A stretch of DNA of 37,387 bases from Chrysochromulina tobinii (lineage: Eukaryota), in NCBI GenBank assembly GCA_001275005.1, contig JWZX01003368.1, positions 1 through 37,387 on the forward strand. Reading direction: 5' to 3'. How positions within the stretch are numbered: the first letter of the stretch is position 1; each line of letters opens with the position of its first letter. The position numbers were made by a program, and so were the translations under genes. The notes under the pieces are model-generated. The model saw only the letters and a program-made list of their open reading frames with translations. It did not search any database and was not told the DNA's origin. Below are positions 3-20,729 of this stretch, piece after piece.

Positions 3-1090
3 CTGCTGCCTCAGGGGAACTCGCCGCGCACAAGCCTCGTGTCCGAGCGCCACGGCATCGAGTTTCGGCAGGTTTGGAAGGTGGCAAGTTCATCGCTCGC
101 CTCATTCTTCTACTGCAACATGTGGGGATCCCTGCGACTCGACAAGCTGCCGCCTAACCAGCCGTTGCCAAAGCGCGCGATGGGCACAGGTGCATCGGCC
201 CCTCGGCTCATTGCTTTCCTGTCCCGTGAGCCAATCAGCCGCTTCGTGGCCTCGTGCTTCGAGGTCCTTGTGCGGCTCCTCAATCATGTCTCGCCAAGCG
301 GGGAGCGAATGCCCGCCGAAATGTACACGGAGCCCAAGGGCCCGTTCTCGCCGAGCGTGCTGCGGCACGGCACGAGCTGGTATGGGCCGCTGCTGCGCAC
401 GCTCAATGCCTCGAGCGCATCGGAGCGAAGGCTGGAGCTCACCGCCCTCGCCAACGGCTTCATCGAAGACATCGAGTGCGCCATCGTCTACACTGCTGCA
501 GAGCATCTCGCCACCCAAATGTCGTTCATTACGAGCGGGTACGAGGAGCGCTCGACGCGCCCCGATGAGATTGCATGTTAATTGCATGTTGATAACATGT
601 AGATAACATGCTGATGGCCTCCCTCATCAGGTACGAGGAGCGCTCGACGCTCGACTTCCAAATCCGGCTGGCCAACGCGACCGTCGACCTTGAGCGGCTC
701 GGGCGGCGCATTACGTACCAAACCCTGCATGGCGTCCCGCCGCATGCCAATACCTCCGTCTGGAAGTGCGCTCTCGGCCGGGAGAATGACGCCTCGAACA
801 AGGCAAAGCTTGCGTTCAGCAAGGCTGACTTCGTTAGCGTGCTCGAGCACAACCCCGCGTTCGTGCAGCGCCTGTGCACGGTTTACATTCAGGACTATCT
901 TTGCTTGGGCTTCGCGCTGCCGCCCGAGTGCGAGGGCGGACGAGAATTGCACCAATGGCCCCATCCTCGGCGGTCGGGCCGACGCGGCGCTCCAGTATCT
1001 GCTGTCGCTGCCCCCGCTGCCATGCAGGCCGCCGTCGCAGGGGACGTCCCTTACATGCAGGGGACGACGGGTTGGCGGACAAGTCAATGA
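3..1090 (+). CDS. Sulfotransferase family 2 (HNK-1/CHST-like) protein, 5'-partial; exons <3..538, 631..1090
   Basis: Frame is open from the window edge. PAPS-binding-like motifs FRQVWKVASSSL and FLSREPISRFVAS; C-terminal LCTVYIQDYLCLGF. Removing GT-AG intron 539..630 joins ORFs 39..581 and 608..1090 in frame (ITSG|YEERSTLDF). Confidence 0.8.
539..630 (+). other. Spliceosomal intron, family A, with exon duplication (phase 2)
   Basis: GT..CAG; 538-558 identical to 630-650 (ggtacgaggagcgctcgacgc); ends ctgatggcctccctcatcag; removal restores the frame. Confidence 0.9.
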
Positions 1091-1480
1091 GTTCCGAAGC
1101 TCACGAGCCGCGAGCCGCGCGCAGTGCCAGGGTGGCCTGCGGAGCCATGCTAAAACTCACTGGGATCATGGCGGTTGTAATCGCCATAACTGTTTTCCCA
1201 TTTTGAATACACAGCTGTCTCATTCGATAGTCCTGCCCTCCTGTACTGCAAACGCGAAACGGGGGCGGGATCGTCTGGTGTGTGGTAGATCGTAACGTAA
1301 TGGCTGATGCTCGACTTGAGAGATGCATGCGTGAGTTGCGTGGGTAGCTGGGTAGATGGTACGCGTACGGAGCCAGAACCGAACGCTCCGTTCACCTGCT
1401 TGCGTTCGGTTTTAATAGCATTTTCTACATACCGCAACTTGTTTACTATTTGGCTCTACGCTCATTGGAAAACGGCATCG

Positions 1481-2710
1481 TCAACCAAAAGGCCGACGCG
1501 CCCGATCATCAAAGAGTGCGAGATCGTCGGCGGCGGGCGAGAAGGCGTCGCCGCAGAAGGCAAAACGAATGGTACGTCGGCGGACGGCCTCAGTGGCGTG
1601 GCGCGCTGCTCGGCCCTCCCGCCAAGCGTCGTTGGTCAGGGCCCACGCGCCGTAATCAGCGCAGCACTGGAGTAGGAAGAGGTCGTCGTACTTGCCCGTG
1701 GGTGTAAGTGAGATGCACCCAAGCTGATCGACGTAGGCCAACTCAGGGTCGGCCGCATCCCAGCGGTTCTCGTTGAGTATGACAGCCATCTCGGCCGCGT
1801 GCAGCCGGCGCCCAGTCGTCCGGCGCAGGTAGTAGTCGACGCATAGGCGGATGCCACGCGCCTCGAACCGTGCGTCGCGGCTGTAGTTGAACGCGACGTT
1901 TGCGCCATCGATGATCAGCACGGGCGGGGGCAGCGCACGGGGCGGCCGCGGTACTGGTGCTGGTCCTGGGTCTGCAGCAACGAGCAGATTTGGTGCGAGA
2001 ACGGAGCCCGGCGCCGCGGACGAGCGTGCGGAGCCCTTTCGATCTCCAGCGCGATCTCCAGCGCGATCTCCCACGGCGGTGACCAGCGCATAGCTCGGCC
2101 CGCTCGAGCCTGCGATTGGTGGTGGCGGACATGGCGGCTGCAGCGGGAGCTGGCATGGGGTTCCAGCTGCAAGAGTGCCGCCCGAGAAGAATAGGTGGTC
2201 CCGAAGCGCCTCGCTACGATGCTTGCTGGATCGACGCATCGCACTCGCCGCACCCTCACGCCTCGCTGCGGCCTCGTCGTCCCTTTGCAGCTTCCACGCG
2301 AGGGCAGCAGAGGCGTCCTCACCAGCAACGTGATTTGCGAGCAGAGCACTGTGGCTACGTTGCTCCTCCTCCGCTTCAAGCTGCATGGCGAGTGCTAGCG
2401 ATGCGTCATCGTCTGGCAGAGGAGACGCTGATGCAGCCGCTCGTGCTGCCGCCGACTCAGCAGCGTGATTATGCTGCTGAGCCTCCTCCGCTTCAAGCTG
2501 CATGGCGAGAGCCAGCGATGCGTCATCGTCTGGAAGAGGAGATGCTAATGCAGCCGCATGTGCCGCAGCCACTGCCTCTGCATACGGTCCGCTGCCACGC
2601 GAAAGGAATGCGTCAACGTCCACCTCGACCGTCGAAGCATTGAAACAAGTCTTGAGTTGCTCCAGCGTGATCGCGGGATGAAGCAGCTCGGCAACTTGCT
2701 GCACATCCAT
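1481..2710 (-). CDS. NYN/PIN-fold RNase (Zc3h12a/Regnase/N4BP1-type domain) with repeated ubiquitin-binding-like helices
   Basis: C-terminal VLIIDGANVA...GIRLCVDYY...TPTGKYDDLFLL...LTNDAWRE carries the four-acidic-residue pattern of RNase_Zc3h12a. N-terminal DDDASLALAMQLEAEE x2 plus EDASAALAWKLQRDDE. Likely ATG at 2710. Confidence 0.85.
   Translation of the reverse strand: MDVQQVAELLHPAITLEQLKTCFNASTVEVDVDAFLSRGSGPYAEAVAAAHAAALASPLPDDDASLALAMQLEAEEAQQHNHAAESAAARAAASASPLPDDDASLALAMQLEAEEEQRSHSALLANHVAGEDASAALAWKLQRDDEAAARREGAASAMRRSSKHRSEALRDHLFFSGGTLAAGTPCQLPLQPPCPPPPIAGSSGPSYALVTAVGDRAGDRAGDRKGSARSSAAPGSVLAPNLLVAADPGPAPVPRPPRALPPPVLIIDGANVAFNYSRDARFEARGIRLCVDYYLRRTTGRRLHAAEMAVILNENRWDAADPELAYVDQLGCISLTPTGKYDDLFLLQCCADYGAWALTNDAWREGRAARHATEAVRRRTIRFAFCGDAFSPAADDLALFDDRARRPFG
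2365..2557. repeat. Intragenic duplication, period 117 nt, encoding ASPLPDDDASLALAMQLEAEE twice
   Basis: cctcctccgcttcaagctgcatggcgag...agcgatgcgtcatcgtctgg at 2365 and again at 2482. Confidence 0.85.
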
Positions 2711-2999
2711 CGTCCGGGCTGCAGAGCGGGCCGATCCCGCCAGCACCAAGCCAATCCCAATACCGCGAGTCGACAAGGAAAACGAGTGTCTTCCGGGCCG
2801 CTTGTGAATGGGCTGTAAATACATATGTTCACGCCGACTACTCGGAAATGTTGGAAGGGCACGCAGGATTAGGTAGGATTCTCATCACAGTTACATGTAC
2901 CCGCACGGTGTGAAACCACGCGTGCGGACGTTGCTGTTGCGGCAGTCGAACCCTGTATTGCGGCCGCACGCCACACGCACGCGCCTCAGCACTGGCCAC

Positions 3000-5900
3000 A
3001 TGGTCGCGGGCACGCCGTCCGGGCCGACGGCGTCGGCGCTGGCCTCGTCGATGCGCGCGTTGTACCCGTCGAGTGCCGACGCGACGGCCGTATCGTTGCC
3101 GACGGCGCTCATCTCGGCCGAGCGCCTGCCGCCGCCGAACCCCATGCTGCAAAAGGAGTACGCCAAGATCGGCGGCGCGGGCGCCGTACGCGCGGAGCCG
3201 GCGGCGTTACACTTTGCGGGCATCGAGATCGGCGCGGGCGGCTCGCTTGTGCAGAAGCTGCGGCTCATCAACAGCTCCGGCCACCCCATTCGCATGCACG
3301 TCCTTCCGCCGAGCACGCCCTTCTTCACGATCAGCTTCGAGAAGAAGGGCCGGCTGATGCCGGGCCTGGCCGAGGAGATCATGGTGCGCTTCGCGCCCAA
3401 CGAGGTGCGCTACTACCACGACACCATCAAGGTGCACCTCGGCGACGGCGACGAGAACTGCCTGCTGGTGCCGATCCACGCGTACCCGGCAGTCGGCGAG
3501 CTTGCCTTCCCGGCGCGCGTCGACTTCGGGATCGTGGCGCAGGGGCAGTCGCGCGAGCGCGTGCTGCCGCTACACTCGCCCGATGGCGCCGAGTTCGAGT
3601 GGCGCATCGAGGTGCGCCAACCGCACGCTGACTTTGTGATACAGCCGAGATCGGGCATCGTGCCCGCACGCGGCGAGGCGGCCATTGTCGTCACGTTCAC
3701 GCCGTCGCGTTTGGCCACGGCGCACTGCGTCTTCGAGCTGCTGATCGCGCAGCTCGGCTATGCGCCCAAAACGATCTCTCTCGTCGGCACGTCCGCGCCG
3801 CTCCAGGTCAAGGACGCGACGCTCGCCCGCTTGCGGCACAGCGAAGATGAGCGCCTGGCTTCCGAGGAGGCCGAGTTCCGGGGGCGCATGTTCCCAAACG
3901 GGGCGCGGCGGGCGGCGGGGGACGATCCGAGCTTGGACGATCCCGCTAGCGGCGCGGCGGGCGACCCGGCTCTCGCGCCCTCGGTGCTCACTGCGCCGCC
4001 CCCCACCGGCCTGATCGAAAAGATCGCCCACGAGGCGCCCTACGGCGGCGGCTCGGCGGGCGGTGACTATGTGACGCGCGCGCGCGCGGCGCAGCTGCGC
4101 GAGGCGATCGGCGACGCGTCCGTCGAGGTCAAGTACCGGGAGGAGCGCCCGTCATACCCCGAGGAAATGAAGGAGGGCTTGCGCGTGCCGCCCTTCCTCT
4201 CGAACCAGTATGCAGTCAACTCGATGCTGCTGCAGCAGCCGTATAAGATGCGGGTCTCGGACTTGCGAGTCGCCATCGAGGAGCAGCAGGCGGACGCGGC
4301 GCGCCAGCAGGAGGAGATGGAGCTCGCGGCGATGGCGAGCCTGCCAGTGCAGTCGCAGCTGCTACAGTCGCTCGGCAAGCGTGTCGATGACGTCATCGCG
4401 TACCTGTTCGCGCGCGATTCGAATGGCGTCGGAACCGTCACCCGCAAACAGTTCCTGGGCGTACGCCATTTGCTCAAGGTGGCGTGCCTGATGGCATCCC
4501 TCATCTGATGACGTGCTTGATGGCCTCCCTCATCTGATGACGTGCCTGATGGCCTCCCTCATCTGATGACGTGCCTGATTGCCTCCCTCATCAGGTGCCC
4601 ACGGCTACGGCGGCGGACATGGGCGAGTTCTTCGACGGGATGGACCACCTCAACGCGGGGGAGCTCGACTATATGCAGCTGCAACGTGTGGCCAAGCGGC
4701 GTGCGGCGACTTTGGGCGGCGGCACGGGGCGGATGGCGTCAACGTCCGTCGAGCCGGGAGAGCTCGACATCGCGCTGCAGGGCCCCGAGCGTACGCGCCA
4801 GCTCAAGGACATGCTCTTCATGAAGGAGGTGGATGCCATCGAGACGTACGAGAAGATGAAGGAGGTCAAGTCCTTCGTGGCCACCGGCCCGCCGCTGACG
4901 CAGCCGTTCATCATCGAGGCCACTCACCGCGCTCGCGACGTTTTCTACGCCGAGAAGAGGCGTGAGGAGCGCGCGGTGGCGCGCGCGCGCCAAGCGACCG
5001 AGCTGTCCGATCCGGCCAAGGTACGCGTCGAAATCTCCGAGCCCGTGGCGAAGCTTGCTGCCGACACGACGCCCAAGTTTGACTCGTATGAGGCTGAGGT
5101 GTGGGGAAAGCGCGAGGGGGTGATGTTCGACCTGCAGCTGGCGGTGCGCGTGGCCACACTACGCGCGCGCCTCAGCCGGCGCGTGGCTGCTGTGCATGCG
5201 GCGCTGGCCAAGGCCGGCATAGGGCTGCACGACAAGCACGCGGTCCATCAGCTTGTCCTCTCGCGCTCGAAGGCAGGTGGCGGCGGCGGCGGCAAGTCGG
5301 CCGGCCTCGGGAGCTCCTCAACCCTGTCCGACGGCACGGTCGGTGGTGGGGGCCTCTCCGCTCTGGCCAAGGCGGCCAAGGCTGTGGGGCTGAGCATGGA
5401 GGGCCTCGCGCCCTTCATATTTCCGGAGGCGCCCTCCAAGGGGGCAGGCGTGCCGCAGGGGGATCCTCTCCCCATCCTGCCGATTGAGCCGTTTGATGAA
5501 ACCAAGCTCTTCGCCCTTCGCGTGCCTCGCCGGTACGTGCAGATGGACTATCGCGAGGCGCTGCTGAGCGCGCCGGGCGCTTTCCCGCCAATGGTGGATG
5601 ATCGGCCGCTGCGCATCGGCGCGCCGTTTGAATCGGGCCGGTTGCTCCCGACTGGGACAGCTGTACCGGTGCCGGATACGTGGGGTCTGCCGTCGCTGCT
5701 GCTCATGCCGCCGCCGCGCCCGCCGCCGCCGCCCGAGCCCGCCGACCCAACTATGGATGACCTGTCGGCGACCAAGGCGCTGGGTGGCGACGAGGCCAAG
5801 GAGGCGGCCGGCGACGAGGAGGAAGATGCCGAGCTGTCTTGGGATGAGAAGCATCGGATGCATCTGGCCCAGCTCAAGCCGCCGATACTTGTGCAGGTGC

Positions 5901-6633
5901 ATCCGCGGGTCATGTGCCGCCCTCCTCGCGCTAATGGCCTCCCTCATTGCATGCTGATTGCCTCCCTCATTGCATGCAGGTGCATCCGCGGGTCATGTGC
6001 CGCCCTCCTCGCGCTGTGGAGACGGATGCGCGTCAGATGTTCCGCCCGATGCCGCTCACCTGCAACGAGTTTTGGAAGGCGGAGCCGATCGGCTTCGGAT
6101 CGGGCCTTGTGCTGCTCGAGGCCGCCTCCCTCTCAAGCGTGTGGCGGCGTACGGCGGACCCCTGGGCGGATGCAGTCGCCGAGCTACCCGAGCGAATGGA
6201 GGACGTCAACCCGCCCGACGCCGCAAAGGAGCTGTCGGAGGACGAGAGCGATACCGAGATCGACCCGTCGTTGCTCTTCCCGCCCTCGCTGGATAAAGTC
6301 GGCCAGATTTTCGACTTGCCGACGCTGCCGGAGGCCGGTACCCTTTTGCCCAACGAAGCCGCCGGCTCGGCCGCGGCCGCCGTGGACGCGAAGCAGGCGT
6401 CGCCGGCGGCGGCGGCGTCTGAGTCGGTCGACGATGGCGACGTGTCGATCGCGCCCGAGCGCGACCTCATCGTCGATGCTCAGTCGGAGCGAGCGCGCGC
6501 CGAGGCGGACCTCGAGCTGCAGGCCCGCCAGGCGCGACGCATGCAGAGGCTCCGGCTGCGCGAGCAGCTCGCCGCGCTCAACGAGCACATCGAGCAGCCT
6601 CGCCACCAACTGAGCCTCACGCAAGGAGCCTAA
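3000..6633 (+). CDS. CFAP221: Cilia- and flagella-associated protein 221 (PCDP1); exons 3000..4478, 4595..5896, 5980..6633
   Basis: Tandem ASH/PapD-like domains with CFAP221 signatures (LHFAG, HVLPPSTPFF, RYYHDTIKVH, LLVPIHAYP, QPRSGIVPA, LSNQYAVNSMLLQQPYKMRVSDLR). Two phase-0 introns join ORFs 2895, 4571 and 5947. EF-hand-like pair flanks intron 1. Start codon uncertain (2895/3000/3051). Confidence 0.88.
4479..4594 (+). other. Spliceosomal intron, family A, built of four tandem 29-nt units (phase 0)
   Basis: AAG|GTGGC followed by three (gtgcytgatggcmtccctcatctgatgac) units and gtgcctgattgcctccctcatcag|GTG; frame restored. Confidence 0.92.
5897..5979 (+). other. Spliceosomal intron, family A, with 41-nt perfect duplication (phase 0)
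   Basis: 5892-5932 identical to 5975-6015; insert aatggcctccctcattgcatgctgattgcctccctcattgcatgcag; frame restored. Confidence 0.92.
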
Positions 6634-6970
6634 TTAGGCAAGGAGCCCCGCGAGGGCGGGAGCAGCAGGGCACGCGTGAAAGTCAAGGACGATCATGGGA
6701 ACATTGTGGGGCGCGGTGTGTACCGGTCCTGGCGGCGACGGCGCGAGAGCCAGACCCAGTTCGCAAGCCACGTAAGACTAAAAGTGAGAGCCAGGCCGCG
6801 CAACCGGCCGCGCAACCAAGCGCGAAGTGTGCCTGTGAGGGACTGACTCACTTACACACTGACTCACTCACCCGTACCTGCATATGCCGTACCGAAAAGA
6901 TAGTGGGTGCGCACCTCTCCAAATTGTGTATGGCGACGGGTTATCCCGGCGTCGTTCATAGGGAGACGAC

Positions 6971-6994
6971 GACTTGACTTGACTTGACTTGACT
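6971..6994. repeat. (GACTT)n = (TCAAG)n pentamer microsatellite upstream of an ATG
   Basis: gacttgacttgacttgacttgact read directly. Confidence 0.9.
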
Positions 6995-7077
6995 ACATGT
7001 CCTGCCCGTGGCTTTGCGGTCTTTGCGGTCGAGTCGTCGAAAAGGCCGCCAGAGCTCCACAACAGGACGTGGACGCC

Positions 7078-7458
7078 ATGTTCGCAGCGCAGCTCGCGCT
7101 CTGGGCGCGGCGGGCGCGCCTACTTCCCATCGCGCAGCCGCTGCGGCTATTGGCGCTCTCGCCACCCCGACTGTCTTGCGTTGCCTCGGTGCAGCTGCCT
7201 GTCGACGCGCCTGCGAGCGGCGCGCTGCGCGATGTCGCGACTGCGGTGTTGCCCGCCTTGGCTGCGGCGTGGACGCTTTTCCCACCCGTCTTGGCAGACC
7301 TCATGCCGAGCATCCTGATGACCGGCAAGCGCCGAACTTCGGGCAAGAGCAAACGGCATCCAAAACCCGCCAATCACGGCGCGCGTGCCTGCAACCACGT
7401 CGGTAGGAGGCAGCGTGCTGCAGCAATTGGCAACCTAAAGTATGCGACGAAAAAGTAA
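7078..7458 (+). CDS. Small hypothetical protein: mitochondrial presequence-like N-terminus plus short, highly basic C-terminal peptide
   Basis: GCCATG context; MFAAQLALWARRARLL... is Arg/Leu-rich without acidic residues; C-terminus GKRRTSGKSKRHPKPANHGARACNHVGRRQR. No family recognised. Confidence 0.55.
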   Translation: MFAAQLALWARRARLLPIAQPLRLLALSPPRLSCVASVQLPVDAPASGALRDVATAVLPALAAAWTLFPPVLADLMPSILMTGKRRTSGKSKRHPKPANHGARACNHVGRRQRAAAIGNLKYATKK

Positions 7459-7755
7459 GTGCATCAGGTGACGCATCTGTTCTCTGTGTTGGGCGTGTAC
7501 TGCAAGCCGCCTCCGCACTCATGTGAAACTCATGTGTGCATCACTTTTGGCCCGCGACCTGATTTTAGATTTATCGTGAGGACGTTAATGGGCTATCGTG
7601 TCGAAGTATCGGCGCATCTCGCCAGGACACACGCACACACTTGCTCTCTACCCCAGAAAACGGCACGTCGTGGACCGCACGCGTTTCGGTTTCTACGGAG
7701 CCGATGGCGGGCCCGGCGCGGGACTGGGAGCGACATGGCCATGAAGGCCATGTGC

Positions 7756-8814
7756 TCATGGCAACTCTTCGAGCCCCTTTGCCGCCGCCTCCTTTCGCTC
7801 ACGCAGCTTGGCGGACATCGCCCGATTGATCGCCGCGAGCGCCGCGAGCCGCTTTCGCCGCTTGGAAGGGAGCACACGCACCGGCACCGCCCCCTCCCCG
7901 AGCGGCTCCCCGTACAGCGTCGCACTCACCTCGAGGCTCAGAGGGTCGCCGAGCTCCTCCTCGGAGCCAGGGCGAAGGAAGTCGGCGGCGGGGATGGCCT
8001 GACCGCCCACGTACACGTGGCAGTTGTAACGCACTTGGTCAGGGCGCGACTTCGCCGGGGGCTGCCGATGCATTCGCACCTCGACCAAGTTCGACGGCAA
8101 CAGCTCGCCCTTGTATCGCATCTCGATGGCGAGCGCGTCCGCCGGAGGGTCCTTCTCGGGCGTGCTCCCATCGGTGGTGCGCAGCAAGATGGTGAACGAG
8201 TGCGCCGCCGCGAGCGGCAGCTCGCGCGCCGCCCCCGGGATGAACGGCGGCCACACCTCGCTGCGTGCGAGATCAATCTGCGACAGCGTGCACTCGCGAA
8301 GGTGCTCGGCGGCGAGGCGCTCGTCGCGCTCCTGCTTGGCGCGCTGGCGCTCGCCGAGCACGACCTTGATCATGGCCATGCTCTTGCGCGTCGCCTGGAC
8401 ACGACCTAGGTGCGGCATCTTCGTCTTGCGCTTCTTGTGCAGCATGCGCGTGCTGTGCAACATGTTGCGCTCCCGGAGCAGCACGATCCAGAGCTTCTGC
8501 AAGTCCTCGTTGCTCTTCAGCCGCAACTCCGCGGCGCGCCAGCGGCGCCCGGGCTCACCCCGGTCTGGGTCCTTCTCGTAAGGATCGATGAACTGCAGCA
8601 ACGCCTCGCGCGATGCAGTCTCTGGGTCCTCCCACGTTGGCTTCGGTGGCCGGTCCGGCGGGCCACGAGGAGCGTAAGATTTCAGCGCAGGAGCGATTTG
8701 CAACGCTCGGCTGAGCACCGCCGTCGGAGCAGCCAGCACAGCGCACTGCGACGATGTGGCCAACATCGAGGCTGGCCGCAGCATCGCGGCTGGGCGACGG
8801 AGAAGCGAAAGCAT
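7756..8814 (-). CDS. MRPL47: Mitochondrial ribosomal protein L47 (uL29m) with C-terminal extension
   Basis: GRRWRAAELRLKSNEDLQKLWIVLLRERNML...RKSMAMIKVVLGER is the MRP-L47 signature; N-terminal presequence MLSLLRRPAAMLRP. Confidence 0.92.
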   Translation of the reverse strand: MLSLLRRPAAMLRPASMLATSSQCAVLAAPTAVLSRALQIAPALKSYAPRGPPDRPPKPTWEDPETASREALLQFIDPYEKDPDRGEPGRRWRAAELRLKSNEDLQKLWIVLLRERNMLHSTRMLHKKRKTKMPHLGRVQATRKSMAMIKVVLGERQRAKQERDERLAAEHLRECTLSQIDLARSEVWPPFIPGAARELPLAAAHSFTILLRTTDGSTPEKDPPADALAIEMRYKGELLPSNLVEVRMHRQPPAKSRPDQVRYNCHVYVGGQAIPAADFLRPGSEEELGDPLSLEVSATLYGEPLGEGAVPVRVLPSKRRKRLAALAAINRAMSAKLRERKEAAAKGLEELP

Positions 8815-9044
8815 AGGGTCCCGTGCCCCTTGTTCTTCAATTCACAACGCAACAAAAACGCTTCTTACGCACGCGATGTGCAACGCAAACTGCGCTCACA
8901 TTCTACCAATACACCTCGGAAATAACGACAGTAAAGTTCAGCGAGTTTTTGGGATTTGGGTTGAACGACGATGGTCTTCCTGGGCGCGGACTCCGACGGA
9001 CGGGCGGCCTCTTCCCTCGTGCCGCTCTGGCGCGCGCGGGGAGG

Positions 9045-12000
9045 ATGAAGGCGGCCGTCACGGAGCGGCCGGGCGCGAAGGCGGCCGTCACGGAGCGGCC
9101 GGGCGCGATGCTCAAAGGAGCTCCGCCACCGCCGCCAGCCAAAGGCGCGCCTTCGGGCAAAGGCGTAGCCGCCGGCGCTGTTGCTCCAACAGCCCCTCCA
9201 CCGAGCAAGATCAGCACCTTCCGGCAAGGCGACCGTTGTGCGGTGAAGAGTGATACAGTCAGCGGCACAGGCGTGATTCAGTTCGTTGGCGAGGTTGCAT
9301 CGTTAGGCCCTGGGATGTGGGTGGGGGTGCTTCACGATGAGCCCGTTGGGACCTCGAACGGTGTCATCGACGGCCGGCGGCTCTTCGCGTGCCCCAACAA
9401 GCACGGCGGATTCTACGCCGTGCACGAGATTCGTGTGGACAAGCACGCCGATGAGAAGGCATCCGGCGGTGTCCCGAAGGCGTCCGGCGGTATCCCGCAG
9501 TCAACTGCGTCACCGTCTGGGGCCGTCGGTGACGAGGCTGGTCCCTCGGTCCCTTGCGCGGCGACGAGTGTCGCTGCGGGCCGTGGCCTGCATACGGCCG
9601 TGGTGGCACAGCTCTCGCAGATTACGATCACGTGCAACGATGCGTATGGGCGACGAACGAGCGGCGGGGATTCCCTGAGCGTCATCGTGCGTGGCGTCAG
9701 TCCACCGACGCAACTGCGCGTCAAGCTGCACGACCACGGCAAGGGAGTCTACGTGGCAGAGTACCGCGCGGAGCTCTCGGGCCAGCTGCTGATCGCGGTG
9801 TGCATCCGAGGCGAGGCCGTGCCAGGAAGTCCCTTCTCGGTGGAGGCGTTGTCGCTGCACGCTGAGGCATCGCAGTGCAAGCTGAGGGGAAACGCCCTCG
9901 TGGCGGCCGTGGCGCGGAAGCCGATGGCGTTTGAGATCGACTTTGTCGATGCGCTCGGCAACCCCGCGGCGGCCGAGGAACTCGACGTGCGGCTCGAGAG
10001 GGCGGAGCCCCTGCCGCCGGAGGCGGCGCCCGTCGGCATTGATGGTGACGAGGGACAGGATGCCGAGGCGCTGGCGGAGGAGAAGGCCGCGTTCGAGGAG
10101 CGCCTCGCTGCGGTCGGCACGCTTTGCGTCCTCCTGAGCAAGGCGTCGGGACTCGACTCGGCGGATCTGAACGGCAAGAGTGACCCGTACGTCGTACTGC
10201 TGTGCGCGGAGCACAAGGCGAAGAGCACGATCAAGCCCAAGACGCTGAGCCCCGTGTGGAACGAAGACTTCTCGTTTGCTGGTACGCTCCAGTCCTTTGT
10301 CACGTCGGGCCTGATGGTCAAGGTGTACGACTGCGACAATCCTCTCAAGCCGGAGAAGGATGATCTCCTCGGCGAGAAGCTCGTGTCCCTCGACAGCTTG
10401 AAGCATCAGAACACGAGCGAGTTAGTCGAGTTCCTGTCCCTCCAGGTAAAGGGGGAAACTAAGCCCGTGCCCAAGGGCAAGGTCATGCTCACGGTGACGT
10501 GGCAGCCGCCGCCCGGTGCGGAGGACGATGACATGAGCGCGAAACTGCTCGTGGGCGACGAGCGGGTGAGAGGATCGCGCCCTCTGATTGCCTCTGATGA
10601 CCGTTTGATGACACCCCTCATCGGCGTGCTGCAGGTGGTGAGGGGATCGCGCCCTCTGATTCTGCGCGAGCGTTGTGAGAAGAACTCGGCGGTGCTGTGC
10701 ATGCTACCCCCAGGCTCCCGGCTGCAGCTTCACGAGCTCAGGGAGATGAGTGACGGTACCCGTGCGCGCGTGCGCGTGGTCAGCTTCTCGGACCCGGTCT
10801 TCGGAGCTTCTTCGAAACTCAAGACCGCACGCCCCGCGGCGACCGCTCGGCTACCCGCACCCGCCCTTCCAGTTGGCGAGTAGCTCATTGGATGGGTCAC
10901 AGCATGGTACGCCAACGGGCGACGCATGCTGGTCAAGAGGCATTTGAAGCTCGACGCGAACGAGCGGCGCCGGCAGCTCGAGCTGTGGAACAAACGGACC
11001 TTTGACGAGAGGGCGCTGATGCAGCTCCAGGGGAAGGAGAAGGCCCAAGGCAAGGAGAAGGAGTTCAACGTGGGCTCGAGCTTCGTGCATGAGCTCGCTG
11101 AAGGCCCTCGTAAGATCGCGTTCGCGTGCGGCGGCGTCTTCCCGGGCACGCTCCACGCGCACGGCGCGCTGATCAAGACGCACCAAGTGTCGTACAGCGT
11201 CGGCGCTGCGGGCAAGTACCTGATGCACGTGGGCCTTCGCCAGCAGTCGGTGGTGCTTCCAGGCTCCCCGTTTGCTCTCGAGGTGAAGCCCGGTCCCGCG
11301 CACACTGAAGACCTCTGATGACCTCTGATGACCTCTGATTGAATCTGATGGCATCTGATTGCCTCCCAGGTGAAGCCCGGTCCCGCGCACGCGCCGTCGA
11401 CCAAGTTTCCCGAGGACGTGCTGCCGCTGCAAACGGTGGTCGGCACCCAAGGAAGGCTTGTCGTCCACTTATCCGACTGCATGGGCAACAAGTGCATCGA
11501 AGGCGGCGCTCATCTCGAGGTCTCGGTCAACACGAACGGCGCGCCCAAGGCCGCTCTCACGTGTAAGTGCGACGACCAGCAGGACGGCACCTTCCTAGTC
11601 ACCTGGTCCAGCGAGGTAAGCCACAAGTTGCATGCTCGAGCTCAAGATCCACAGCATGCATGTGCTCACCACGACGCTCCACCACTTCCCCACAGGTGAG
11701 CCACAAGTACATGCTCGAGCTCAAGATCCACGGGGTGCACATCGTCGGCTCCCCGGCGCCGCTGACCCTGCTTCCTGGAGACCTCGAGGTGAGCCGCTGC
11801 TCGCTGCTCGCGCCTCGCGAGGCTGTCGCGGGCGTCGCGAGCCTGGTCGAGACCAAGTGTTGCGACGCGTATGGGAATGAGGTTGCGCCGGACGTACTCG
11901 CGGGCCATGCGCCACCCTTTGGACTCCTCCTCGTGCCCGCGCTGCTCAAGGGCGTCAGCGGGCCGACCGGCAAAGACGGACGGGACGTCGAGGAGAAGCG

Positions 12001-13599
12001 CGGTCCCAACAAGGGCGACCACGTGGACGAGAAGCGCCGCGCAGCCCTGCTCAAGAAGGAGGAGCGCGCAAACCTCGTCAAGACGCTCGACACGATGAGC
12101 TTCCATGGCTCGTGGGACGGGTCCCGAATGAAGATGAGCTTCGTGCCCAAAGAGGCCGGCGACTTTGAGTTGCATGTTTGGTGCGAGCCCAACACAATTG
12201 GGGTTCGTCAGTTCCTTCCAGGCTGCCCGACGATGATACACGTGAAACCGGGGCGTGCTAGTGCGATTGGTTCGCATGTCCGATCCGATGGCGCGTCCGT
12301 CGCGCTGCTCACCGCCGGCGACAAGCTCGCCCTTAAGGTCCAGTGGCTGATGAGCTTTGATTGCCTCCCTCATCAGGTCTGATGAGCTTTGATTGCCTCC
12401 CTCATCAGGTCCAGATCTGCGACGAGTTCAACAACTTCGTCTCCCTCGCATCGGCGTCTGATATGACCTCGATGCTCGAGACGCCCATCGGGCAGCTCGC
12501 GCTGATCCAGAAGACGAGCGAGAAGCTCGAGGATCACAAGGAGGGCGACAAGAAGAAGCACAGCGTCGCCGCCGGCTCGTCCGCGGTCGGGCTGTACGAG
12601 ATCGTGAGCCCGGGCGAGCTCACTGTTAAGGGTGCGCATAGGGTATCGATCCAGCTCTTCGGCGAATCGATCACGGGCGCGCCCATCAATATTATGGTGG
12701 CGCCCGGGCCGCCAGTCTATCATAAGAGCTACCTCGAGGCCAAGGGTAGCCGACAGGAGATCGATTCTCCCATCGACGTCATCCTCCATCTTCTCGACAA
12801 GTACGGCAATCGGTGCGAGCAGGGCGGCGTACGCGTGGACGCGAAGGCGTACGGCTCCAAGGCGAGCGAGGCCAAGGTGATCGACAATCCGAACTGGCCA
12901 TTGATGGCGCCCTTCATCAGCCTCCCTCATCAGCCTCCTTGATTGTACCTTGATTGCCTCCCTCATCAGGTGGTCGACAATTCGAACGGGACCTTTTCGA
13001 TCTCGTTCAGCGCGGCGGTCCCGGGCGATTACAAGGTCCAATGCCGCCTCGAGAATGCAGACTTGCAAGTGCTGCAGCTACACGTCCTCGAAAAGGGCGA
13101 GAAGGCCGACAAGGCGGATTACGATGAGGAGATAGCGCCAGCCCTCAGAGCCCTCGCCAGCTCCAAGCCTCCAGCCCCTCCAAAGTCCGCAAGGTCAGCC
13201 TCGTCACCGACTTCGTCGGTGGTCACGGCGCCTTCAGCGCTGCCACCGGCCCCCATGATGCCCCCGCGGCCACCTGACGGCATGTCGGGTCCGGAAGCCG
13301 CCCTAGTCAAGCAAGATGCAGACGCAGCCAAGAAGAAGAGCAAAGAGAAGGGCAGCAAGACTGGCCGTGAAGAGAAGAGCGCCCGTGAAGAGAAGGGCGC
13401 TCGTGAAGAGAAGGGCGCTCCGAGCGCCACGAGCGCCGTGACGAGCGCTACCGAGGACGAGAGCACCAAGAAGACGGCCCGGGCCGGTAGCGGCAAGGGC
13501 ATCAAAACTGGGCGCGAAAGTACTGCGAGCAGTCCACCAACACCAAAGAAGGACGCCGCCAAGAAGGGTGGTAGTAAAACCGTGAGGGTGGTTGGATGA
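9045..13599 (+). CDS. Multidomain CAP-Gly + filamin(Ig)-repeat + C2 + SH3-like protein; exons 9045..10565, 10635..(in-frame TAG 10881-10883)..11282, 11370..11615, 11696..12337, 12409..12876, 12970..13599
   Basis: CAP-Gly (GVIQFVG..GMWVGVLHDEPVGTSNGVIDGRRLFACPNKHGGF); filamin repeats (DHGKGVY..GSPFSV, DQQDGTF..HIVGSP, DNSNGTFSISF..PGDYKV); C2 (ADLNGKSDPYV..KTLSPVWNEDF..KVYD). Five phase-0 GT-AG introns join successive ORFs; one unresolved in-frame TAG. Confidence 0.8.
10566..10634 (+). other. Spliceosomal intron, family A variant, 69 nt, in-frame and stop-free (phase 0)
   Basis: CGG|GTGAG...CTGCAG; 10566-10589 matches exon 10638-10661 with 1 mismatch; contains ctgattgcctctgatg and cccctcatcgg. 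Confidence 0.8.
11283..11369 (+). other. Spliceosomal intron, family A, 10-nt repeats plus 23-nt perfect duplication (phase 0)
   Basis: 11281-11303 identical to 11368-11390; insert (ctgatgacct)n...ctgattgcctcccag; in-frame TGA stops removed by splicing. Confidence 0.92.
11616..11695 (+). other. Spliceosomal intron, family B, ~36-nt diverged duplication (phase 0)
   Basis: gtaagccacaagttgcatgctcgagctcaagatccac vs exon gtgagccacaagtacatgctcgagctcaagatccac; ends gcatgcatgtgctcaccacgacgctccaccacttccccacag. Confidence 0.9.
12338..12408 (+). other. Spliceosomal intron, family A, two identical 30-nt units with internal AG|GT (phase 0)
   Basis: ctgatgagctttgattgcctccctcatcag at 12347-12376 and 12379-12408; aggtccag at both junctions; frame restored. 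Confidence 0.9.
12877..12969 (+). other. Spliceosomal intron, family A, ~18-nt diverged duplication (phase 0)
   Basis: gtgatcgacaatccgaac vs exon gtggtcgacaattcgaac; ends ttgattgcctccctcatcag; in-frame stop removed by splicing. Confidence 0.9.
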
Positions 13600-13856
13600 G
13601 ACGTCAGCAACAGTCACCTAGGGGCAACCTGGCAAGACCCGCGCAGCACACGCACATCAGAACGGCATGCCTCCCAGCGCAGTATTGGAAATTGCCGTGC
13701 GAGGTGCGAGCCGGATGCGGATCGCGTATTCCATCTAGTTAATTACCGAACGACCGGGTACCTCTTCAGGTGTCAGGAGGTATAGTACGTGTTCGACAAT
13801 CGCGTATTCGATAACGTACTGAGTCGTGAGTGAAACTGAGTGCAGAGTAGACACTC

Positions 13857-16587
13857 TTAGAGGGTGACGAGGGGTGCCTCGCCTCCTGCCGCGTCGCTGG
13901 ATCGGTGCTTGCGGCGGCGGCGCTTCTCCTTCGGCGCCCCGGCATCCTCAGGCTGCGCGGGCGCTCCGAACGCCTCCCCGTCCGCGTCTCCGAGCAGGTT
14001 GACAAGGAACGGCCCCTTTGCATGGCTGAGCAGGGCTTTGGACGGCGCAGCCAGCGGCGTGGCTGCGGTCGCTCCTGCGCCGCCGGCCATTTCAGGCACG
14101 CGTCGCTCGTCGTCATCGTCATCGTCGCCGGCCCCTTCGGGCATGGCTTCGTCAAGATCAACGGCCGTAACGGCCTCCTCGTCTCCGAATGCATGCGTAC
14201 CGCCTGCCATATGAGCCAAGTCGCCCGCGCCCGCAGCGGCGCCGCCCCTGCTGCTAGCGCCGCTGCCAGTGGTGGTGGCACCTTCGGAGTACATTAGAGA
14301 CGGCTCTGCCGCGCCGGGCAGCGCGGTGCTCGGCGGGCCGGCAGGCTCGTCCGTCGCCAGGTAGTACGGGCCGGCGCGCCCGGGGCGTCGTGCGCCGTCG
14401 GAGGAGGCGGAGGTGGCACTGCCCGGATAGGCGGTCGGCGTGGAGGGCGTGGAGGGCGCGGCGGGCGCGGTTGGCGGCGGCGGCGGCGTGTACAGGGGCG
14501 TGTGTAGGTCAAGGTCCGCTGGCGGCTTCACCTTACGCTGAGCTTTTGGGGCCACCGCCCGGAGCTCCACCGTGAGACCCTGCCGCAAGGCCGCGAGCAG
14601 CCGCAGCGCACTCGGCTCGGGCCAGCTCGGATCGGGCCCACCACCCGCACTCGGATCGGTCCAGCTCGGCTCGCGCCCACCCAACGCGACGGCGCCCAAC
14701 GCGGCGGGCGCGTGCATCAGCTTGGCCGAGCTCCCGAGCTCGGCGCCGTGTCGGGCGTGCGCACCGGCGCCGAGCACGAGCACGAGCACCTCAGCGGCCG
14801 AGGTGGCGCGTTCGCTCACCTCGAGGTGCGGGGAGGCATAGAAGCGGCACAGCGCGCCGTACGTGGAGCGCACGAGCGCTCGCAGCGCCGCGGCCTCGTC
14901 CCCTTGGCACGTCGCGCCGGGTCGATCGAGCGTGGCGAGGGCGCTCTCTACCTTGGGCAGGTGGACCAGAACGCGGGGGGCCGCCTGCACGCATGCCGCC
15001 TGGACAGACGGGGAGAGTGAAGCCACCGCTGGGCACAGGAGCACCTCGAGTGACCGAAGCTGTGAAGACGGTGGCAGCTGTGAAGAGTGCTCGCCCAAGA
15101 CCCAGGCGGCCGCGTACAGCGTGGCATCCGGCTGGAGCAGGCCGGGCAGGGAGGCGCCCGCCATTTGGTCGAGCGCCGTCTCGAGCACCTCGAGTGCCTT
15201 CTCCGCCGCAAAGCCGCGTACGGACTGTACGCGGAGCGTCACCTCGACGAGGAGCTGCGCCACGTCAGCATCGTGCTTCGAGGGGAGCGCCGCGAGCGCA
15301 AAGAGCGTCGTGACGAGCCAGCGGAAGGACGGCACGTGGGAGAAGCTCTCGGCCTTCACAGCCGCCAGGAGAACCTCAATCACCTCGTCGCGATACGAGC
15401 TCTCGCTAGTGTACAGCTGTCCCATCAGCTTCGCGACCAGCCCCGGCAGGCTCGCGCGGCTGACCATCCCCGAGATCAGGCTGAGAGCGCGTTGACGAAC
15501 CGTCGGCTGGTCGTCGAGGCATTTGAGAATCGCGTCGCGGCAAGGCTCGACCAACGCCTTGTCCGCCCTCTGAAGCTCCGCGAGCGCGAGCAGCCCGAGG
15601 GCCTGCAGGTTCGGGTCGCTCGTCTCGATGAAGCCCTGAAGGTGCGTCGCAGTCAGCTGCGCGAGCTGAGGGCTCGAGTCGGCCATCGTCGAGGCGACCG
15701 TGTACAGGCATTCAAACTGGAGCGATTTGGCGGGAGTCGTCTCGATCAAATGGGTGAGGGGCTGGACGAGCTTCTTGGCGAGCCGCGGCTCATGGGGCAC
15801 GAGCTGCCGAAGGAACTTGACCACCTTAATGAGCGTCCAGTTGGAGGACGAGGTGGTGAGCACCTGTGGGGAGACGCGAGGGCGCCGTAGTCAGCACTTG
15901 CATGCAGAGTGGCGTCCGGTGAAAGGACGAGGCAGTGAGCACCTGGTAGAGCGCGGGGGCTAGCCCGAGGTACCCTTTGGGATTCTCGGTCGCGAGCTCG
16001 GTGAGCACGTTGACGGTGCACGAGACGACGTTCGGATCAGGGTCGTCGAGCTTCTCGCGCAGCCGCGGGAACGCGGTCGGCAGCGCCTCGGGCAGACGCC
16101 GCAGCAGCCGGTACAGCGCGATGACCGCCTTTTTGCGCACGAGAGGGCGCGACGAGGAGAGCAGATTGGTCACGTCCTGAAGCAGGTCGCGCGAGAGGTC
16201 GGGCGTCGCCATGACTGAGAGGCTGTTGAGCGCGAGCGACGCGTCGTGGTGCACCGACGACGCGAACGACTTGCGCAGCAGGTTGGTCGTGAGCAGCATG
16301 ACGTCCGTCGCATCCGTGAAGGTCTGCGCGGCGGCGAGGTAGCCGATGCGCTTCCCGCGAAAGCGCGGCGAGGCCATCAGGTCGACGAAGTGAAAGGCGG
16401 CCCACGAGACGTCCTGGCCGAGCATGTGCATGTACATGAGCTTGAGCACTGCATGCTGCTTGACCGTCGTGTCCGTGCTCGAGAGCTCGCCCTTGCACTC
16501 GGTGATGCAGGTGGCAAGGTACGCGGCCTCGTTTTGCGGGTTGGCGCGGATGCCTTTGATCATATCGTTGAGTGTCTTCTCGAACAT
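13857..16587 (-). CDS. AP3D1: AP-3 complex subunit delta (adaptin); exons 16587..15943, 15863..13857
   Basis: MFEKTLNDMIKGIRA...KRIGYLAAAQTF...VRKKAV...LDDPDP..V..ELATENPKGYLGLAP..YQ|VLTTSSSNWTLIKVVK..EPRLAKKL..VAPKAQRKV matches delta-adaptin. Confidence 0.95.
15864..15942 (-). other. Spliceosomal intron, family B, 19-nt duplication with 2 mismatches (phase 0)
   Basis: Minus strand: CAG|gtgctcactgcctcgtcct...gcatgcaagtgctgactacggcgccctcgcgtctccccacag|gtgctcaccacctcgtcct; restores the conserved AP3D frame. Confidence 0.93.
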
Positions 16588-16687
16588 GGCTGCAAAGAGT
16601 TGGAGCAGTGCTCACTGGCGATGGCAATCGTCCGGCGCGGGCGCCTGCGACGGCTTTCCTCCTTCGCACTTGACAAAAGAGGGCAAA

Positions 16688-16711
16688 TCAAGTCAAGTCA
16701 AGTCAAGTCAA
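16688..16711. repeat. (TCAAG)n microsatellite in the divergent intergenic region between AP3D1 and the methyltransferase
   Basis: tcaagtcaagtcaagtcaagtcaa read directly. Confidence 0.9.
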
Positions 16712-16894
16712 AGAACGCTCATCCCTCGCCCGGCACGCATGCACGCAACCGAGTTTCAAACGAGACAGACTTTCGTGGGGCATACATGTACATGTTTAGG
16801 GTCTGCAGGCCGCAATTGCCCCAATTGGAAACCAACACATGGGGATTTTTCTCCGTAGAGGGCCGGCACAACCTCAGGAGTCCCACGTACGCCA

Positions 16895-18291
16895 ATGCTG
16901 TCTGTCGCTGTGGCCTGTTGCCCGGTCCTCGGTTCCAGTGCAACAGTCGCTGTGGCAATGGCCTGTACTGCACCGCGATCGTGCACCTCGTCGATGCTGT
17001 CAAAGCTGGAAGGAACCTCGTGGCACCCTTCTGTGGACGGTGCTGCCGCATTCGTTACCTTCACGGACGAAATGTACGAGGCGATGCTGCACGACGACGC
17101 TCGCACATCGGCCTTCGGACTAGCGATAAGCCGGAGGGTGCGTGCACACGCGGGCGACTGCGTCGTCCTCGACCTGGGAACGGGCCCATTTGCAGTGCTG
17201 GCCCTCTTCGCTGCGCGTGCAGGCGCCTCAAAAGTGTTTGCCGTCGAAGCCAATCCGGAAGCCGCGGCGAAAGCCCGCGCCTTGATCGCGAGCTCTGCAG
17301 CGTCTGACATTCCGCCAGGAACGATTGAGATAATCGAGGGCTTCTCGACGACGATCACGCTGCCGGAGCAGGCCGACCTGCTCATCTCCGAGATTGCGGG
17401 CTCGATTGCATCCGAAGAGGGCATGTTGGCCACGATCCGCGACGCGAGGCTGCGGCACATGAAGCGGCCGTGGGATCCCCGCTCCTATATCCCCGCCCGC
17501 GTCCAAACGCTCGCCGTACCTGCCGCCTACAGCCTTCACCACCGGCTCAATTGCGATTGGATCGCCTCTGGCCCTCCTGTGAGGTTTGCGTGCGACAACC
17601 CGTGGCTGCTCCCGCTCGCGACACCGCAGCTGTGGGAAGACTTTGCCTTCGGAGGCGAGGAGCTGCCGCCTGGATCGGGTGCGCGTTGCACGACGGTGCT
17701 CGAGTTCCGCGTGTGCGCGTCCACCCTCAAGGCCAACGCAGCTCGCTTGCTCGAGCAGCTCGATCTGCACGACGTCGACGCGGACCGAGCCGGTGTGCCC
17801 AAGCAAGGCCGCTCACAAAACCCTGCGCGCTGCGCCATGCCCTGCGCGGCCCGCCCCGAGCAGCTCGCCGATAGCTCGCCGAGCGCCTCTGATTATACTC
17901 CGATGGCCGCTGATTGCGACGGATTGCATGTTTGCTTCCCTCATCAGGTGCCCAAGGCCGCTCACTCGCGCAGCTCGCCGAGGACGTGGCGCACTCTCTG
18001 TCCGGGCTCGCCTGCTGGCCACGCCTCGTGCTCGATGAAGGCGGTGGTGGACCAGTCGACGAGCCCCCCATCCCTCCCATCGTCATCGAATCGCGCGGCA
18101 TGCGCGGAGAACCCTTTCGTAGCCATTGGCAAACGGTGCTCCCGTTGCTGTCGACGAGGCCAACGCCGGTCAAGGCGGGTGCGCTCATCTCAGTGAAGGC
18201 GACTGTTGAACTGAGCATGGACGTTGAGTTGCCGCCCTATTATGAGATCGAGGCTTCCATAGAGTACCCATGTGATGGCGCGCTGCCCTGA
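16895..18291 (+). CDS. PRMT-like SAM-dependent protein methyltransferase; exons 16895..17792, 17948..18291
   Basis: YEAMLHDDARTSAF, VVLDLGTGP, KVFAVEAN, ADLLISEIAG..EEG (double-E loop) and SHWQTV (THW-like loop) after the intron. Start codon uncertain. Confidence 0.85.
17793..17947 (+). other. Spliceosomal intron, family A, with fragmented exon duplication (phase 1)
   Basis: Contains gtgcccaag, caaggccgctcac and gcagctcgccga from the downstream exon; ends ctgattgcgacggattgcatgtttgcttccctcatcag; donor at 17793 restores the frame. Confidence 0.8.
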
Positions 18292-20380: not shown

Positions 20381-20612
20381 TCTCCCCTGATCACCTTACC
20401 TGTCTTCCGACGCCAACGATCCGACGCCCTTGCCAGGTCCAGTCTCCCCTGATTACCTTACCGGTCTTCCAACGCCGACGATCCGACGCCCTTGTCAGGT
20501 CCGATTCCCCTGAGTACCTTACATCCTCTGACGCCGACGATCCGACGCCATGCCAGGTCCAGTCAGCAGTCTCCCCTGATTACCTGTCCTCCGACGCCGA
20601 CGATCCGACATC
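20381..20612. repeat. Tandem array of four imperfect ~62-nt units
   Basis: Unit tctcccctgatyaccttacc..tcttccracgccracgatccgacgcccttgycaggtcc starts at 20381, 20443, 20505 and 20570 (partial). Confidence 0.9.
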
Positions 20613-20630
20613 ATTCATGCGCGTACGCTT

Positions 20631-20729
20631 TCCCTGATTGCATGCTGATGGGGCCCTCCCTCATCATGGCATGCCCATGGCCCTCCCTGATTGCATGCTG
20701 ATGGGGCCCTCCCTCATCATGGCATACAG
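20631..20729 (+). repeat. Orphan family-A-like element: two 42-nt copies (period 53) ending in ACAG
   Basis: tccctgattgcatgctgatggggccctccctcatcatggcat at 20631 and 20684, same vocabulary as the family A introns. Confidence 0.8.

Follow-up and report, generated by a model that had tools for sequence, protein, structure and literature searches.

The stretch of Chrysochromulina tobinii DNA analysed here (37,387 nt of contig JWZX01003368.1, the window) carries five genes in which ten introns had been proposed to share one layout. An unnamed gene on the forward strand hosts the intron 539..630 and is followed by a CFAP221-like gene (3000..6633, forward), its name taken from the initial annotation, with Pfam CFAP65/HYDIN Ig domains and a reading frame that is open once two introns are taken out and not otherwise. 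The CAP-Gly/filamin/C2 gene (9045..13599, forward) has five introns, its frame being set anew from the ATG at 9045 for the assignment of phases. On the reverse strand lies an AP-3 delta adaptin gene (13842..16588, 3' end approximate), which has homologs and an Adaptin_N match on both exons (profile 6-193 and 201-484), and a methyltransferase gene (16838..18291, forward, start approximate) is the last of the five. The C. parva gene model P0137 is an exact match to the three CFAP221-like exons of the window. It had been claimed that splicing restores the proteins exactly, which fails for the window allele of the filamin/C2 gene, with its in-frame TAG at 10881, a site at which RNA contigs from three runs carry C.

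All ten introns are GT..AG segments at the coordinates first proposed, and the counts given with them are reproduced, with G|GT at ten of ten, AG|GT at seven of ten, phase 2 at 539, phase 1 at 17793 and phase 0 at the other eight. That the start of the intron copies the next exon holds for eight of the ten, which in an anchored alignment score at least 18 (cross-pair maximum 12, n=90), but taken singly the exact 3-nt match at 4479 and the 6-nt match at 12338 are no better than chance. The idea of one shared motif did not survive; instead there are two unrelated tails, A and B, and several 3' end variants. As is the case for spliceosomal (U2-type) introns, seven of the ten are joined exactly in RNA contigs, which bears out the proposed junctions for these seven but not for 539, 11283 and 17793, for which there is no RNA joint among the matches listed.

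Intron 539..630 begins with an exact 20-nt copy of the next exon start (539-558) followed by tail A, it is also present in another assembly (L079), and frame continuity is the sole sign of its splicing. In 4479..4594 the exon match reaches 5 nt with the AG and tail A is a 29-nt tandem unit present 3.8 times, the joint being exact in RNA contigs of four of four runs. Intron 5897..5979 has an exact 36-nt exon copy at 5897-5932 (41 nt with the upstream TGCAG) and a variant of tail A; its joint is exact in three of four runs, and the data contain no independent DNA record of this intron, DNA run X2 having a skip at the site that may be a polymorphism or a collapse of the 41-nt repeat. The 24-nt copy in 10566..10634 is one codon short with one mismatch, its end overlaps tail A by CCTCTGATT, and the joint is exact in two of four runs. 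Intron 11283..11369 combines an exact 21-nt copy with an array of a 10-nt unit, its junction being backed by homologs P0074 and P0100. A diverged copy of about 37 nt (11616-11652) and tail B make up 11616..11695, whilst in 12338..12408 the short copy is followed by tail A in two tandem units of 32 nt; both joints are exact in two of four runs, 12338 is also joined in DNA run X2, and intron-less alleles could be the source of the RNA joints of both. Intron 12877..12969 has a 21-nt copy (18/21) and tail A, and is joined exactly in four of four runs. These introns are on the forward strand, as is 17793..17947, which has a fragmented exon copy and a degenerate tail A, is kept in a DNA contig and has its junction backed by homolog P0166, contiguous across the site. 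On the reverse strand 15864..15942 has a 31-nt copy (25/31) and tail B, and is joined out in one RNA contig with 0 other letters, with a DNA contig retaining it. The clearest cases of removal from RNA and presence in DNA are 4479, 12877 and 15864.

The layout is not confined to the window. Genome-wide figures come from at least 131 motif-seeded loci (743 kb), a sample that over-represents tail A with GT after it, in which 351 motif-A ends were reduced to 243 by dropping 17 redundant loci, sites less than 200/120 nt from contig ends and non-terminal array units. Of these 243 ends, 90 have upstream of them an exon copy with a score of at least 12 and a length of 11-55 nt, as against 0 of 714 control sites; the other 153 lack a copy of that score, and short copies are modestly enriched (at least 6 nt in 10 of 119, against 1.6). 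Tail B was found through a motif-independent repeat scan, which was noisy and served for nothing else; at motif-B ends, which lie outside the search selection, an exon copy occurs at 39 of 82, some of them in tandem arrays, with 35 of 813 in the control. It is apparent that the copies start with a potential donor, with GT/GC at 80 of 90 in the GT-biased sample and 23 of 28 in the unbiased set, and GT/GC follows 78 of 101 unbiased ends compared to a background of 14%, which holds in the non-coding class too. The copies are not always perfect, with 57 of the 90 differing from their own exon. By a crude codon classifier 17 of the 243 motif-A ends are antisense, and within the window neither antisense nor intergenic copies were seen. 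Arrays of the 'mirage' type also occur inside introns with ordinary donors (e.g. L016).

A hairpin or terminal inverted repeat (TIR) reading of tail A was rejected, with z of -1.4 to +1.1 in six folds, and self-complementarity at the tail end (5-7 bp) is not above that of shuffles. The viral contigs screened for the motif gave 0 matches. For intergenic insertions of 200 and 101 nt, which have repeats of 13-14 nt, the loci contain no match over the full length.

Comparison with relatives suggests that most of the window introns are probably recent gains, because they are absent in outgroups and in a sister lineage of 94-98% identity. Proteins of the sister lineage, from contigs of 16-73 kb, are uninterrupted at 4479, 5897, 11616, 12338, 12877 and 15864, and have a B-type intron of their own at another position; the DNA origin of such homolog proteins was inferred from the size of the carrying contigs or from read-through into another intron. 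The outgroups lack these intron sites; the 4479 intron is absent in both sister and outgroups, that at 10566 in a paralog and the outgroups, and that at 15864 in the sister lineage and three outgroups, with P0026 having an unrelated intron at the 15864 site. Intron 12338 is polymorphic in DNA, being skipped in run X2 and missing from P0084 and P0091. Elsewhere, a 79-nt intron in L030 is missing in the 98%-identical L058. In a quick AP3D tree the two intron-bearing rows fall in separate clades with intron-less rows beside each, and read-through introns of distant haptophytes have no A or B tail. The positions are mostly not conserved in distant haptophytes, contrary to the refuting condition set in the initial annotation, but distant homologs do have an intron at the 15864 site and probably at that of 11283; the 11283 intron is common to the sister lineage and the window, and its site is probably intron-bearing in some paralog alleles too. 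Furthermore, the exon copy at 15864 is 19% diverged though the sister lacks the intron, and that at 11283 is perfect though shared with the sister, therefore some absences may be losses.

The likely source of a tail is often close by. For 17.6 of 224 introns the tail most like their own is in the same locus, where 3.9 are expected (0 of 2000 permutations); in a one-culture assembly subset, a grouping made in this analysis, the figures are 18.1 of 175 against 4.7 (0 of 5000). The most direct case is the strain-specific intron of L030, the tail of which matches an intron 359 nt upstream that both strains have; the match extends to a T in the donor of L030, at a position where L058 and L008 read C. 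The entry junction of the L030 intron has 2 unmatched bases and no microhomology. Taken together, however, the junctions are enriched for microhomology on both sides. Among the 33 of 64 junctions between copy and tail that could be scored, 15 have microhomology of at least 4 nt, compared to 10% in simulation. The start of the exon is also shared over at least 4 nt by 7 of 15 related local pairs, against 57 of 415, although the 15 pairs are non-independent, and 3 of the 15 lie on opposite strands 9-13 kb apart. Within 13 kb of L022 four introns, lying on both strands, have one private tail variant in common, which turns up a further time in L069; with the variant on both strands of L022, a DNA template is favoured over the same transcript. 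Near-identical tails within a gene are seen in L022, L030, L034, L046 and L106, not in the eight A-type window introns, for which the best within-window partner ranks just 6-80 of 247. A whole intron is copied in one case (L034). No more than about 8% of introns have a recognisable local donor, and later gene conversion could be an alternative source of the local likeness.

These introns, in which a copy of the next exon start is joined to a shared tail carrying branch point and acceptor, are strain-variable spliceosomal introns, and we think it rather likely that they are new, gained by template switching of a DNA polymerase onto the 3' end of an intron already present, often one close by. 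The division proposed in the initial annotation, with the donor from exon duplication and the remainder from a recurrent sequence, is supported, and its alternative of templated filling of staggered breaks comes close to the best reading here, that switching guided by microhomology copies an existing intron 3' end, from DNA or pre-mRNA, to a new AG|GT site. The event would begin in replication or break repair, when a growing 3' end that has reached exon position +N (about 5-55) pairs over a few bases with the repeat tail in a different intron. Copying would then run through the tail and its CAG into the opening bases of the donor exon, a step visible directly once, at L030, and statistically elsewhere. 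Return to the target at +1 through AG|GT microhomology would allow +1..+N to be copied again, and the product would be exon 1, the GT copy of +1..+N, the tail to CAG and exon 2, spliced to the original mRNA, which is the arrangement observed. Within exons only products with GT/GC at +1 and a total of about 60-110 nt would survive. Slippage at a later stage would produce 'mirage' arrays in tandem, and exact loss would be possible through the flanking repeats. As every new intron would be a new donor, the tail could spread without a transposon. Against a DNA process, intergenic and antisense copies would be expected, and few are seen. The chances appear about even that this amounts to self-amplifying mass gain free of transposons, in which selfish intron 3' ends are copied in cis to AG|GT with the target duplication as donor, and which has built most of the lineage's introns (thousands), is still active in populations and was missed by introner pipelines.

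A reverse transcriptase that jumps from the transcript it is copying to the 3' end of an intron in that pre-mRNA (or its lariat) and back to a downstream exon position, with the cDNA recombining into the gene, would account for copies that are confined to genes in sense, for same-gene donors, the fixed CAG end and co-occurring precise losses. This is the model of Roy and Irimia, as cited in PMC3443670 and PMC3609843. Related tails also occur on opposite strands at a distance of 9-13 kb (in 3 of 15 pairs, and in L022), exon-start homology past the CAG speaks against an excised lariat, although not against pre-mRNA, and a weak screen of about 640 kb (about 1% of the genome) has no reverse transcriptase signature; we regard this route as unlikely. 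The initial annotation had put forward, as one of two readings, target-primed reverse transcription (TPRT), here with a short SINE-like or intronic RNA as template for a non-LTR or Penelope enzyme, and the features that suggested it stand, namely variable target-site duplications (TSDs) of 11-55 nt, a fixed 3' end, and a truncated, ragged 5' end with microhomology. This combination resembles LINE insertion. What is missing is a set of dispersed copies from common masters that includes intergenic and antisense ones (by the crude classifier, in 1% of the genome); instead private tail variants are restricted to single loci, the window lacks intergenic copies, the excess of GT/GC after unbiased ends extends to the non-coding class, and the exon-start homology of the pairs is not supplied by excised intron RNA. 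With this local likeness and the near confinement to sense, splice-competent sites TPRT becomes very improbable. Non-LTR elements make up about 5% of classified introners (PMC12130899).

It is also conceivable that the introns are old and only their 5' part was replaced, by slippage over an existing acceptor (a mirage) and then an AG|GT deletion, with the absences being repeat-mediated losses. Mirage-type arrays in introns with ordinary donors, positions common with P0026 and probably with paralog alleles, and the diverged exon copy at 15864 would fit, but the sites are empty in the sister and several independent outgroups, and the separate clades of the AP3D tree, the distant haptophyte introns without either tail and the passage from donor to new site in L030 make this an improbable account. 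Misassembly, with de Bruijn loops forming at a high-copy repeat, might explain why 5897 is skipped in a DNA contig, and some perfect tandem arrays may be loop errors; yet the introns stand in ungapped DNA contigs and other assemblies, most copies are not identical to their own exon and RNA joins the segments out, so that such an origin is scarcely credible.

The origin of new spliceosomal introns is a long-standing question, for which recent surveys put forward introner transposons as the only mechanism explaining bursts of gain (PMC12130899). The layout described here is possibly a transposon-free route to mass gain, in a culturable, sequenced alga with abundant young introns that introner surveys scored as zero. 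Its footprints are readable, in duplication length, junction microhomology and an identifiable donor on the same haplotype, and with donor-recipient pairs and strain polymorphisms the rate, the template (DNA or RNA) and the repair pathway are directly testable. The finding suggests re-screening other genomes for introns that start with a copy of the next exon.

As introners are described (PMC9860276, PMC12130899), they likewise provide many new introns of related sequence and co-opt one splice site from a target duplication. Here there is no end-to-end family identity, similarity stopping short of the 5' boundary at site-specific exon copies, which departs from the Gozashti definition; long variable duplications (11-55 nt) and the lack of TIRs separate these introns from DNA-transposon (MITE) introners, as the initial annotation had argued, and the tail variants are locally private. 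The same papers report a family from a marine Chrysochromulina MAG that has a 4-bp TSD and carries its 5' site, and Emiliania fam24, with five copies and 10-bp terminal direct repeats, that co-opts the 5' site and carries the 3'; the 2025 survey gives C. tobinii 0 families. No description of the layout in Chrysochromulina was found in the literature searched, which took in the first 32 of 214 'Chrysochromulina' matches of the PMC9860276 supplement, with files 13-14 of the PMC12130899 supplement outside it. The Rogers model of tandem genomic AGGT duplication, as given in PMC3443670, also has an AG|GT exon duplicate as donor and is precise, leaving the protein unchanged, but its intron is the duplicated exon alone, whereas here the tail is foreign to the target exon, a different intron providing branch point and acceptor, and such events recur across the genome. 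Staggered-break repair in Daphnia (PMC4202315) is alike in that its inserts end in direct repeats and are polymorphic for presence and absence, that parallel gains are frequent and that secondary internal duplications occur, and here too the insertions are flanked by direct repeats, polymorphic and absent in outgroups; the Daphnia repeats are 4-17 nt long and its parallel inserts non-homologous, in contrast to duplications of 11-55 nt and two common tails with traceable neighbour donors. In the fungi of PMC3609843 the source of a new intron is an intron already in that gene, but whole introns are copied, at most 16 per species and almost no share of gains, where here it is mostly 3' halves with an exon copy at genome scale. 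The amphioxus 'mirage' repeats (PMC3087553) are tandem units of intron end and exon start, similar to the arrays inside many introns here, but they remain at an existing junction, whereas here single units stand at formerly intron-less sites.

The ten introns of the window, named by their start coordinates, are all GT..AG and all lie at G|GT, with 7/10 at AG|GT, just as initially annotated. That every one of them begins with a copy of the first bases of the next exon holds for eight, for which alignment scores of intron start against next exon are 18-72, the maximum among 90 cross-pairs being 12. On the plus strand the matches are 20 nt at 539, 36 nt at 5897, 24 nt at 10566, 21 nt at 11283, ~37 nt at 11616, 21 nt at 12877 and a fragmented ~18 nt at 17793, with 31 nt on the minus strand at 15864-15942, but those at 4479 (+, 3 nt) and 12338 (+, 6 nt) have no significance by themselves. 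The introns end in one of two unrelated shared tails, A and B, and every match to these tails in the window is intronic and on the strand of the gene. Retention gives a stop or frameshift in 9/10, with 10566 staying in frame. In the exon start at 15864-15942 (-) an 11-nt stretch (GTGCTCACCAC) is in common with the tail B core, possibly a targeting homology or chance.

The host genes encode a CFAP65/HYDIN-domain protein, initially named CFAP221, a CAP-Gly/filamin/C2 protein, AP-3 delta adaptin (AP3D) and a methyltransferase. The C. parva protein P0137 is letter-for-letter identical over the three CFAP221-like exons, and two of the window's proteins cluster at 90% with C. tobinii KOO31929.1 and with C. 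parva models. The window GC of 63.4% is the same as that of the C. tobin genome, where there is roughly one intron to a gene (PMC4580454). Exon 2 of the filamin/C2 gene has an in-frame TAG at 10881-10883 (+). RNA contigs of three runs show C at its first position, 10881, and in another haplotype one nucleotide is deleted at 10757; the TAG allele is a null allele, a paralog or an assembly error. A second haplotype or paralog, ~98% identical, spans ~7800-13000, with DNA depth about doubled and intron content differing at 12338. At 20381-20730, where no ORF is assigned, three copies of a 62-nt unit that contains CAG/GT and a site like CTGAT precede a degenerate repeat of tail A, possibly a mirage (tandem intron-end/exon-start) array in an unannotated transcript.

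Splicing is exact in RNA contigs for 7/10 introns: 4479 and 12877 are joined in 4/4 runs, 5897 in 3/4, 10566, 11616 and 12338 in 2/4 each, and 15864 in run X17. For 539, 11283 and 17793 there is no joint among the matches listed, depth being low at 539 and 17793; homologous proteins are uninterrupted across 17793 (P0166) and 11283. That the segments are assembly artefacts is barely credible, as an ungapped contig of DNA run X2 retains 15864 and 17793 and the same run reads into 4479 from either side. 5897 is also skipped in X2 and is the least secure intron, since the 41-nt repeat it carries can be collapsed by assembly at k=31.

The layout recurs beyond the window, as had been predicted. A motif scan of other contigs covered at least 131 loci and 743 kb, in which the sequence downstream of 90/243 non-redundant, terminal motif-A ends is repeated upstream with a score of at least 12 (control 0/714), with no long copy at the other 153. 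Copies are 11-55 nt (score at least 10), mostly 15-35, implied introns mostly 60-110 nt, and divergence from the exon 4.6%, with 33/90 copies perfect. After motif-A ends outside the search-pattern selection (n=101), GT follows in 66 and GC in 12, against backgrounds of 6.4% and 7.9%. A crude codon model places 150 of the 243 ends before sense coding and 17 antisense, leaving 76 unclassified (random: 233, 271 and 496 of 1000). Tail B, which was not search-selected, has the same layout in 39/82, arrays among them (control 35/813). With seeds removed there are ~123 A and B ends per 403 kb, which scales, roughly and with upward bias, to the order of the genome intron count. Tandem arrays of exon start, tail and CAG occur in eight loci (L006, L011, L013, L016, L031, L043, L061, L064), and as every unit is itself GT..AG, recursive splicing is possible.

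Age was read from gene calls on long contigs, with DNA origin judged from how large the contig is or from calls that continue into another intron. On contigs of 16-73 kb, a sister lineage with 94-98% amino-acid identity reads through 4479, 5897, 11616, 12338, 12877 and 15864. It does have the 11283 intron, and its AP3D contains a B-type intron of its own with no counterpart in the window; more distant homologs (contigs 7-104 kb) lack the sites. Intron content is polymorphic, with other alleles lacking 12338 and keeping 12877, in agreement with a 12338 joint in X2; among other assemblies, strain L030 has a 79-nt intron whose duplication, AG+28 nt, is perfect, and L058 lacks it. Most sites are thus empty in relatives, as recent gain would have it, but three points speak against gain alone: the intron of P0026 at the site of 15864 is unrelated, paralog alleles that stop or start at the site of 11283 probably have an intron in that place, and copy divergence does not follow presence in the sister lineage. 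A quick AP3D tree puts P0026 and the protein of the window in different clades, each beside intron-less rows, and that these are old introns since renewed seems a slim prospect. Three proteins (P0122, P0125, P0104) are chimeric between two filamin paralogs with breakpoints at intron sites, through assembly chimerism or gene conversion.

Tails resemble those of neighbouring introns more often than expected. The closest tail lies in the same locus for 17.6/224 introns (null 3.9; as many in 0/2000 permutations), and for 18.1/175 against 4.7 in a subset of assemblies. Private variants are confined to one locus each in L046, L034, L106 and L068, and another is on both strands of L022 with one additional copy in L069. 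The tail of the L030-specific intron matches an intron 359 nt upstream that is present in three assemblies, and has the base of the L030 donor, not that of the L058 and L008 donors, so in this one case an intron was copied from a same-haplotype neighbour; GTGA starts donor and target exon alike. Among the eight A-type introns of the window, none has a conspicuous donor nearby; the best partner in the window ranks 6-80 of 247. In L034 (+) a whole intron including the exon copy of its donor has seemingly been copied 2.9 kb away (7448 and 10316, both starting GCAA, GC donors). L030 also has intergenic insertions of 101 nt (8391-8491) and 200 nt (8548-8747), absent in L058, with 13-14 nt direct-repeat flanks and no full-length match among the loci; insertions with long duplications arise outside introns too.

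We think it reasonably probable that these introns arise by microhomology-guided template switching on DNA. Synthesis would leave the exon at position +N for a donor tail and return at AG|GT, both switches guided by microhomology; splicing would filter the products, each of which would become a new donor, and arrays would form by secondary slippage. Local related pairs share exon starts of at least 4 nt in 7/15 cases against 57/415 (Fisher p=0.003, the pairs not being independent), and copy and tail overlap by at least 4 nt at 15/33 scorable junctions (of 64) against 10% simulated. What a DNA template chiefly fails to explain well is that so few copies are intergenic or antisense. RT switching on pre-mRNA is an unlikely alternative. 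Insertions of LINEs have variable target duplications, a fixed 3' end and a ragged 5' end with microhomology, and target-primed reverse transcription of a dispersed element was one of two origins first suggested; tails most like those of the same locus argue against it, and it is now very doubtful.

The introns work like those gained by tandem duplication (PMC3443670) and at staggered breaks in Daphnia (PMC4202315), their donor relation is like that of fungal same-gene duplications (PMC3609843), and the arrays resemble amphioxus mirages (PMC3087553). They fail the introner definition of similarity near both ends (PMC9860276); the introner illustrated in that paper for Chrysochromulina is of opposite polarity and has a TSD of 4 bp. 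A 2025 survey gives C. tobinii 0 introner families; it also lists a five-member Emiliania family with the polarity seen here and 10-bp direct repeats (PMC12130899). The literature searched, which lacked most subscription papers, held no description of this layout; prior notice is possible, but this is a real, genome-wide, probably recent and apparently undescribed intron gain. It is akin to the previously known duplication/repair type, to which these introns would add a plausible self-amplifying element.
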